Position numbers and translations under genes: made by a program. Below, piece after piece: positions 14,396 through 14,528 of a stretch of 16,045 nucleotides of DNA (position 1 is its first letter; each line of letters begins with the position of its first letter). Source of the DNA: Haliangiales bacterium (GTDB lineage Bacteria; Myxococcota_A; Polyangia; Haliangiales; Haliangiaceae). The notes under the pieces were generated by a model. The model was not told the DNA's origin. It saw only the letters and a list, made by a program, of their open reading frames with translations, and did not search any database. Where the stretch lies: assembly GCA_038322185.1 (NCBI GenBank), contig JBBQFU010000208.1, positions 1 to 16,045 of the forward strand, given 5' to 3'.

Positions 14396-14528
14396 GTTGA
14401 CGCCGATGCCGGCGAGCTAGGGTCAGACACAAATAGCACCACTAGCGTCGAGCGGAGCTAGGGCGAGCTAGGAGCTAGTGGTGCTATTTGTGTCTGACCC
14501 TCTAGTTGACGTTGACGCCGATGCCGGC
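14396..14528. repeat. Composite intergenic element: an 18-bp direct repeat GTTGACGCCGATGCCGGC (14396-14413 and 14511-14528) flanks a 26-bp perfect inverted repeat (14420-14445 / 14475-14500). The 29-nt loop and flanks hold tandem GAGCTAGG motifs.
   Basis: I read this directly. GGGTCAGACACAAATAGCACCACTAG pairs with CTAGTGGTGCTATTTGTGTCTGACCC. The CTAG-containing octamer GAGCTAGG occurs at 14414, 14455 and 14465, and AGCTAG again at 14473. Confidence 0.7.
14417..14505 (-). terminator. Very stable stem-loop (26-bp stem, 29-nt loop) immediately 3' of the 14502..15299 gene on the minus strand. Candidate intrinsic terminator or RNA-stability element; no U-tract.
   Basis: Its position is 0-3 nt after the stop codon of the upstream minus-strand gene and ~40 nt before the next gene's start. 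The stem is perfect. Confidence 0.4.

Follow-up and report, generated by a model that had tools for sequence, protein, structure and literature searches.

A long perfect hairpin lies between two minus-strand genes, one encoding a lipoprotein and the other a small CxxCxxCC protein, in contig JBBQFU010000208.1 of a Haliangiales bacterium (NCBI assembly GCA_038322185.1, a metagenome-assembled genome, MAG). The whole contig, 16,045 bp in length, was analysed and is referred to below as the window. The hairpin is probably a REPIN-like non-autonomous element (REP, repetitive extragenic palindromic), in which two inverted terminal inverted repeats (TIRs) of an element of the RAYT (REP-associated tyrosine transposase)/TIRYT type, a 'TIRtron', stand head to head and which is mobilised in trans. 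An earlier note, made from the letters of this DNA, had proposed a small mobile element resembling a miniature inverted-repeat transposable element (MITE) or, alternatively, a REP-type structured repeat. The two proposals turn out to describe the same thing and are upheld by the same evidence: the hairpin is one of the many dispersed copies of a family, nine orthologous loci lack it, and the same ends flank a RAYT-like Y1 transposase gene at a related locus, L039 (loci retrieved in the searches are given L numbers). A single-copy element conserved in all relatives, named in that note as the counter-case, is the opposite of what was found. The hairpin itself is an ordinary kind of element; only the duplication that flanks it is unexplained.

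The hairpin and its flanking repeat

The inverted repeat 14419-14446/14474-14501 forms 28 contiguous perfect pairs around a loop of 27 nt, and lengthens to 35 nt at 91% complementarity. The earlier note had placed a perfect hairpin here correctly but gave it 26 bp and a 29-nt loop; likewise, the identical 18-mers that it saw on either side are present, but are 20 nt long. The exact 20-mer ACGTTGACGCCGATGCCGGC occurs at both 14394-14413 and 14509-14528, and this pair is one of two direct repeats of at least 16 nt in the window. As the note had stated, one copy (14509-14528, minus strand) holds the last codons of the upstream gene (AGIGVNV), within the conserved lipoprotein C-terminus, and the other (14394-14413, minus strand) lies between the hairpin and the leader of the downstream, YkgJ-like gene; this second copy is missing from all orthologous loci.

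The left arm AGGGTCAGACACAAATAGCACCACTAGC (28 nt, 14419-14446) is the perfect complement of the right arm (28 nt, 14474-14501), and the 27-nt loop (14447-14473) is made of iterated GAGCTAGG motifs. The part that defines the family, a 79-nt core GGTCAGACACA...TGTGTCTGACC, spans 14421-14499; the matches to the termini pattern and to the arm profile described below are the evidence for it. A 5-nt spacer GAGCT (14414-14418; AGCTC on the minus strand), which falls within the CTAGCTC motif iterated in the loop, separates the duplicated 20-mer from the hairpin. The 11-mer GGCGAGCTAGG of the loop recurs where the left 20-mer meets the hairpin (14411-14421); read on the minus strand, the same two sites carry the 11-mer CCTAGCTCGCC, in the loop and at the hairpin/20-mer junction.

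RNA folding of 14380-14540 gave -87.3 kcal/mol (z = -8.7; 0 of 200 shuffles as good), and DNA folding of 14414-14508 gave -37.8 kcal/mol (z = -10.0 against shuffled controls). The 95 nt between the 20-mers (14414-14508) have a GC content of 55%, compared with 67.6% for the whole window. The window contains 10 CTAG sites, compared with about 48 expected from its base composition, and six of the 10 lie within 14417-14505.

A dispersed family of hairpins

The exact arm 21-mer of the window copy had no match in the genome, metagenome and viral collections, so the search for further copies proposed in the earlier note failed with exact arms; it succeeded with a gapped pattern. When the outer 11 nt of each arm, separated by a gap of 48-78 nt, were searched in species-representative genomes and in metagenome and viral contigs, 13 genome loci and 43 metagenome contigs were matched, and no viral contig. 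By a hand calculation, about one match to this termini pattern would be expected by chance in 596 Gb. All 13 genome loci are in three Kofleriaceae/'uncultured delta proteobacterium' MAGs, six in each of two, and nearly all of the matched contigs have a GC content of 65-72%. Once duplicates and three repeat types of other kinds had been set aside, the set comprised about 40 distinct hairpins, 70-99 nt in length.

The family hairpins are of the GGGTCAGACAC type, with stems of 24-30 bp and arms that start with GGGGTCAGACACAA and continue in iterated CACAA(C/G)TTG modules. The terminus GGGGTCAG is found in 31 of 41 copies, while the window copy has AGGGTCAG on both sides, matching 7 of the 8 positions of GGGGWSAS. 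Beyond the conserved first 12 nt, the window copy agrees with the consensus at 12 of 17 positions, its nearest relatives being the copies at L050 and L035. A hidden Markov model of the arms built without the window has the two window arms as its sole matches there (E = 1.3e-4 and 4.5e-4).

Across the copies, 90.5% of the arm cells are paired, compared with 79% in shuffles and 24-40% in slid controls, a measure that is inflated by subfamily inheritance and by the search pattern, which fixes the first 11 pairs. Cells changed on both sides of a pair number 140, as against 49 in shuffles, and none of 500 shuffles reached 140. To judge from these paired changes, the hairpin is maintained while its sequence varies.

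Hairpins are also kept at orthologous positions, at L046 925-998 and L049 4444-4517 (flanks 90% identical) and at L024 1191-1265 and L060 1338-1407 (79%), and so copies can persist across species; the arms of both pairs have diverged, partly in an uncompensated manner. Tandem duplication of one arm together with a few flanking bases was seen at L030 441-537, at L038 2901-2999 (the same locus as L061) and at L012 295-416 (the same locus as L042), which suggests that slippage occurs readily at the family hairpins. The same termini, AAAAGGGGTCAGACACAAT...ATTGTGTCTGACCCTTTT, enclose a non-palindromic interior in an 81-nt element at L040 1906-1986, L055 1216-1296 and L057 3819-3899, on contigs of 52-54% GC; the terminal motif is therefore also found outside the high-GC lineage.

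The packing of CTAG sites had caught the attention of the earlier note. The concentration is genuine, with six of the ten sites of the window in the hairpin region, but it lacks the significance given to it: counted over the hairpin and 6 nt of flank on each side, 28 of 41 copies have no CTAG, and the family median is 0. Of the six sites in the window copy, the terminal TAG/CTA tags account for two, CTTG->CTAG changes mirrored in both arms for two more, and the GAGCTAGG iterations of the loop for the last two. CTAG richness is peculiar to the window copy and is not a family trait.

The element had no match in a blastn search against plasmids and phages. Three further identities were considered and rejected. 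The scanned open reading frames (ORFs) of the window include no reverse transcriptase, and the gene order is the same as in relatives that have no hairpin, which speaks against a retron or a diversity-generating retroelement. An integron attC, protelomerase or dif-like site would call for an architecture that is not matched here, the palindrome being broken by the 27-nt loop. A sequencing adapter was dismissed since the sequence has no known resemblance to common adapters and has natural homologues.

Empty sites at orthologous loci

The comparison with loci lacking the insertion, which the earlier note had called for, yielded nine empty sites. At all nine orthologous loci with the same gene pair (76-86% nucleotide identity over the flanking genes) the hairpin is missing and the lipoprotein gene ends in TGA, and an arm profile that included the window arms found no copy in them. 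At eight of them, 1-20 nt separate TGA from the conserved leader TGCGCTACGG, and on every contig that reaches far enough the ATG of the small gene comes after this leader; the exception, L005, has an opposite-strand gene between the lipoprotein gene and the small gene. The CxxCxxCC gene of the relatives begins 17-38 nt past the lipoprotein stop. Given the nine loci without the hairpin, we conclude that a lineage-specific insertion of about 107 nt took place in the window.

The closest empty junction, at L006, reads ...GTCAACGTCAACTGA-T-TGCGCTACGGTGGGGCATG or, in an alternative writing, ...GCCGGCATCGGCGTCAACGTCAACTGA-T-TGCGCTACGGTGGGGCATG, and the window junction reads ...GCCGGCATCGGCGTCAACGTCAACTAG-AGGGTCAG...CTGACCCT-AGCTC-GCCGGCATCGGCGTCAACGT-TGCGCTACGGTGGGGCATG. 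Relative to an L006-type ancestor, 'GAT' has been swapped for 107 nt, comprising the hairpin and the second 20-mer copy, with the conserved leader unchanged. In the window this leader, TGCGCTACGGTGGGGC (14378-14393, minus strand), lies directly 5' of the ATG of the CxxCxxCC gene (14377), so that 16 nt separate the ATG from the left 20-mer copy upstream; the 5' part of the leader, TGCGCTACGGT, is kept in the orthologous loci and was left intact by the insertion. The stop codon changed from TGA to TAG (14502-14504, minus strand), flush with the hairpin and drawing on the first bases of the element. In BLAST alignments, the single stretch of 20-25 nt in the relatives aligns with both 20-mer copies of the window. 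The C-terminus G[IVL]GVN[VL]N* was present in all 18 lipoprotein homologues inspected, and for this reason 14509-14528 was taken as the native gene end and 14394-14413 as the duplicate.

A second filled/empty pair was found in L015 and L066. In L015, convergent Usp and SNase genes are separated by precisely the hairpin and nothing else; the stop of the SNase gene is TAG there, and TGA, followed by an unrelated 64-nt spacer, in the 71%-identical ortholog L066. A third candidate pair, L016 and L025, was uninformative, as synteny breaks.

These comparisons bear on whether the hairpin evolved in place as a locus-specific structured terminator or regulatory RNA between the two operons. Its very stable stem, directly past a stop codon and between co-oriented genes, has the appearance of one. 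The presence/absence pattern and the family membership contradict such an origin, however, since the hairpin is missing from nine orthologous loci and is homologous to dozens of copies at unrelated loci. Nor is it a canonical intrinsic terminator, the role offered in the earlier note: no U tract directly follows the main stem on either strand, and the sole match to the terminator consensus is a 5-pair stem inside the loop. A search of the element against Rfam returned nothing above threshold, only sub-threshold generic hairpin matches to miRNA families. We attach hardly any probability to an origin in place.

A RAYT-like Y1 transposase gene between the same ends

A search for the HUH...Y..NP motif over 358 kb (the related loci and the window) revealed two ORFs with this signature, on L039 and L062. 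The L039 gene (2273-3151; motifs HIH...YIHNNP) encodes a RAYT-like HUH/Tyr (Y1) transposase with a weak DnaA_C-like match to a C-terminal helix-turn-helix. On this related metagenome contig it is framed by the same 38-nt ends, the left one at 1925-1959 and the inverted right one at 3192-3227. The ends read TA|GGGGTCAGACACAACTTG...GTGTGGATAAC, with an inverted partner closing ...CCCC|TA; ends of this type can also be written TA|GGGGTCAGACAC... The left flank is GGA-TA-GGGGTCAGACACAACTTGTGCAAGTTGTGTGGATAAC and the right flank ...GTTATCCACACAAGTGGAGCAAGTTGTGTCTGACCCC-TA. A full hairpin copy lies between the left end and the transposase gene. The family copy at L048 consists of exactly the left end, 4 nt (TCGA) and the right end, and from this composition we conclude that the hairpins are head-to-head dimers of the ends of the L039 element.

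The second RAYT-like protein, encoded at L062 2390-3139 (HYH...YVVMNP; PF01797 45.9 bits, NF047646 E = 7.5e-18), is 33% identical to the first, and its gene lies between arrays of self-complementary GGGGTCAGAC...GTCTGACCCC units. These arrays have a period of about 37 nt (L062 2157-2250 and 3123-3169; likewise in L028, L031, L052 and L056). Their unit is GGGGTCAGAC(CTGT/ACAG)GTCTGACCCC followed by GCTCTGGCACCGC, so that they form a second repeat family with the GGGGTCAG motif in common.

The following course of events is proposed. The hairpin has no coding capacity; a Y1 HUH tyrosine transposase whose gene lies elsewhere in the genome would have moved it in trans, and it would have entered the window lineage after its split from the closest sampled relatives. 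Landing at the lipoprotein stop, the element would have turned the ancestral TGA into TAG with its terminal AG, and it would now part two genes that in relatives are separated by 17-38 nt. The stem would be transcribed with the 3' end of the lipoprotein mRNA and, by analogy with REP hairpins, most likely has a stabilising or attenuating role at the RNA level: it would shield the message against attack by 3' exonucleases or lessen the read-through that reaches the CxxCxxCC gene. As the stem begins 0-2 nt past the stop, it may also hinder terminating ribosomes.

Several observations weigh against this identification and the proposed roles. The L039 transposase scores below the curated cut-offs of both relevant profiles, NF047646 REP_Tyr_transpos (E = 1.5e-10, 41 bits; cut-off 80) and PF01797 (Y1_Tnp; E = 1.3e-3, 19.3 bits; cut-off 23), and a phmmer search of it against PDB sequences gave no match to a solved RAYT. 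The window copy has diverged: it is a CTAG-type variant whose termini carry GGG in place of GGGG, and its exact arm 21-mer recurs in none of the collections. Both the multi-copy status and the RAYT-like gene were shown in related genomes and not in the source genome: six exact-termini copies are present in each of two related MAGs, where there are thus many extragenic copies per genome, and the 16-kb source contig holds a single one. The missing U tract speaks against the role at the RNA level. Finally, IS200/IS605-type Y1 transposition is not, to our knowledge, known to make flanking duplications, so that the 20-nt repeat is left unexplained by the proposed mechanism.

Association with stop codons

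Gene-like ORFs were defined by at least 150 codons and a GC content at third codon positions of at least 0.80, and a stop was counted when it fell within -16 to +2 nt of a hairpin end. Such a stop was found at 33 of 82 hairpin ends, compared with 1.1% of random positions in the same loci. Of these stops, 28 are TAG and 5 TGA, against a background of 129 TAG and 135 TGA in the same loci. TAG lies at -3/-4, flush with the G-run, and TGA at -7; some hairpin ends have TGA-N-NGG in place of TAG. At L011, L015, L016, L037, L043 and L047, the copy lies exactly between two convergent genes, each of which ends in a TAG of this kind. The outer tag is NTAG and not a conserved GTAG, with N about 13 times C, 11 times A and 5 times G among the gene-adjacent ends (hand tally).

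The ends of GTAG REPs frequently provide a TAG stop to the flanking ORFs (PMC3733652), and REPs at most 15 nt from a stop codon stall ribosomes in Escherichia coli, according to Liang et al. 2015 as cited in PMC12306157. The present family resembles these REPs in that its ends are 0-7 nt from the stop, that TAG makes use of the element's own terminal bases and that the empty site has TGA in both filled/empty pairs; it differs in its much longer stems of 24-30 bp.

Origin of the 20-nt repeat

The earlier note had offered, as one reading of the flanking repeat, a target duplication. This interpretation did not survive the comparison with the other copies: a long flanking repeat accompanies two of the 41 family copies, that of the window (20 nt) and that of L019/L041 (30 nt), with the remainder not exceeding the control level of 13. 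Since it is so rare, the 20-mer is not a family-wide target duplication. A clean target-site duplication was rejected for the window itself, as excision of the element and one 20-mer would fuse the lipoprotein and CxxCxxCC ORFs in frame without a stop, against the conserved ...GVNVN* end. Moreover, the distal 20-mer runs directly into TGCGCTACGG and not into CAACTGAT, which follows the ancestor of the first copy, so that the second copy lacks the ancestral sequence after it.

Lack of a fixed-length duplication also counts against a conventional MITE with a DDE transposon as its source, for instance an IS630/mariner-like one, which would insert at TA and duplicate it. TA does stand on both sides of many copies, including the L039 RAYT unit, and the window copy is flanked by it as well (minus strand CAAC-TA-GA-GGGTCAG...CTGACCC-TA-GCTC). 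At the insertion point of the empty site, though, there is no TA in either filled/empty pair, where TGA became TAG, and some ends carry TGA-N-NGG instead of TAG. Long repeats are of 20 and 30 nt in the two copies mentioned and no higher than in controls in the rest. Only Y1/HUH transposase genes were found between these ends, in a search of the related-locus ORFs that was made with the HUH/Tyr motif alone and was not aimed at DDE transposases. We regard a DDE origin as very improbable.

The only analogue of the 20-nt repeat of the window is that of L019, which represents the same locus as L041. Positions 463-492 and 617-646 of L019 form an exact 30-nt repeat that corresponds to the last nine codons, the TGA and one further base of a methyltransferase gene, and they flank a 124-nt insert in which a family hairpin and three tandem CCGGACGGG(G) units are present. 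Orthologs of the gene upstream of this copy, at L067 and L068, have diverged too far for an empty site of the 30-nt repeat to be read from them. The records L019 and L041 are not identical (99.86% identity), which argues that such duplications are real.

This matters for the suspicion that assembly created the 20-nt repeat, and perhaps the entire layout, as an artefact, a de Bruijn loop through a (k-1)-mer. The repeat lengths would suit it, since 20 = 21-1 and 30 = 31-1 are k-1 of common assembler k values; the edges of the repeats are sharp, and the contig comes from a MAG. A loop would nevertheless need real reads across the hairpin-end/20-mer junction and the 20-mer/TGCGCTACGG junction, neither of which is in the empty-site sequence, and a simple de Bruijn loop was rejected since the junctions cannot be derived from that sequence. 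In addition, the 30-nt case occurs in two records that are not identical, and the hairpin belongs to a genuine family that is also found on multi-megabase MAG contigs. An artefact is, in our assessment, highly unlikely.

A site-specific recombination site, another suggestion of the earlier note, fared no better. The 20-mers would then be the attL/attR cores of an integrative element targeting the 3' end of the lipoprotein gene, and the hairpin its remnant. It fits that the repeat holds the last codons of the gene and that what comes after the gene-proximal copy is nearly the same as the native end (CAACTAG compared with CAACTGA), as with elements that rebuild their target. When the 10 large ORFs of the window were scanned against Pfam, however, no integrase or recombinase family was matched; the sequence between the repeats is the hairpin of a dispersed family that normally has no flanking repeat; and the displaced native 3' end CAACTGAT, predicted after the distal copy, is replaced by TGCGCTACGG. 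The probability of this explanation is slight indeed.

We infer that the 20-nt repeat is a by-product of the insertion, made by repair or template switching, or a product of later slippage at the hairpin, and that it is not a family signature. The 11-mer CCTAGCTCGCC at its two sites and the tandem duplications of arm and flank in other copies are possible clues to its origin, and a further one may be the junction of 20-mer and leader, which forms the quasi-palindrome GCGTCAACGTTGCGC. Recombination between the two 20-mers would, from the reading frames, remove the hairpin and the stop, fusing the lipoprotein ORF in frame with the CxxCxxCC ORF (...GIGVNVALRWGMECRP...).

A bolder possibility, which we consider rather unlikely, is that the 20-nt duplication of the window and the 30-nt duplication of L019 are footprints of the de novo insertion of hairpins mobilised by a Y1 (RAYT/TIRYT) enzyme. 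Each duplication takes in the final 7-9 codons of the upstream gene and has its end at the stop or close to it. Insertion would then proceed at a staggered break next to the stop, through template switching or the repair of a gap, and not by the scar-free single-strand 'peel and paste' of IS200/IS605. We know of no insertion mechanism shown for REPIN-type elements; if true, the footprints would offer a first handle on it, and, speculatively, the two copies with long duplications might inform the insertion mechanism of RAYT-dependent elements in general.

Comparison with known repeat systems

The TIRs found at TIRYT genes have the motif GGGGWSAS in common; they are present singly, as dimers or in clusters (Di Nocera, De Gregorio and Rocco 2013, PMC3733652). 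The present family has the same organisation, with a Y1 HUH/Tyr gene between long TIRs, a repeat start GGGGTCAG (31 of 41 copies) that fits GGGGWSAS, and moderately abundant repeats that are found as singles, head-to-head dimers and clusters. It differs as a new sequence family in Kofleriaceae (Myxococcota), a group that a text search of PMC3733652 did not find, and in the (A)GGGTCAG end and CTAG-rich interior of the window copy and the weak DnaA_C-like helix-turn-helix of the L039 transposase.

REPINs are hairpin doublets mobilised by single-copy RAYTs (PMC3337134). Like them (Bertels and Rainey 2011, PMC3116915; PMC3337134), the elements described here combine two inverted units in one long hairpin of about 70-100 nt, are non-autonomous and dispersed in extragenic space, persist at orthologous sites across species (L046/L049 and L024/L060) and are associated with a RAYT-like gene flanked by the same repeats (L039). 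Unlike classical REPINs, they have NTAG (N = C, A or G) abutting the G-run instead of a conserved GTAG, and an arm that is a 30-38-nt TIR of CACAA(C/G)TTG modules instead of a 20-25-nt REP palindrome; their best match to the REP_Tyr_transpos profile is below the curated cut-off.

With classical bacterial MITEs (Correia elements and IS630-derived elements) they share a short, TIR-only, non-coding and multi-copy nature, frequent TA flanks and a presumed ability to change the expression of neighbouring genes, whereas the missing fixed-length target duplication and the association with a Y1/HUH instead of a DDE transposase set them apart.

Literature searches by motif and by taxon found no paper on this family or on such repeats in Kofleriaceae. 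If the identification holds, a repeat family of the REPIN/TIRtron type is added to this poorly studied group of Myxococcota, with a clear present/absent polymorphism at an operon junction and with ends that carry their own TAG stop. For annotation, such hairpins would account for unusual TAG stops, for intergenic gaps that have become wider and for islands low in GC and rich in CTAG in these genomes, and should not be mistaken for terminators or recombination sites.

Neighbouring genes

The upstream gene (14502-15299, minus strand) encodes a 265-aa lipoprotein beginning MRLLALTLLATGC... that has no Pfam domain. It has 49 homologues, and the few with source names come from Kofleriaceae, Haliangiales or Deltaproteobacteria; the family is restricted to Kofleriaceae/Haliangiales. 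The downstream gene (14114-14377, minus strand) encodes 87 aa with a weak CxxCxxCC match (PF03692, YkgJ-like).

Elsewhere in the window, an 814-aa ORF at 6468-8912 (plus strand) with matches to MVP_shoulder (E = 1.6e-23), Vault_3 and Band_7 looks major-vault-protein-like. A full-length serpin (PF00079, E = 7e-102) is encoded at 10418-11914 (plus strand), adjoining an RNase II/RNB-family exoribonuclease gene at 8882-10372 (plus strand).

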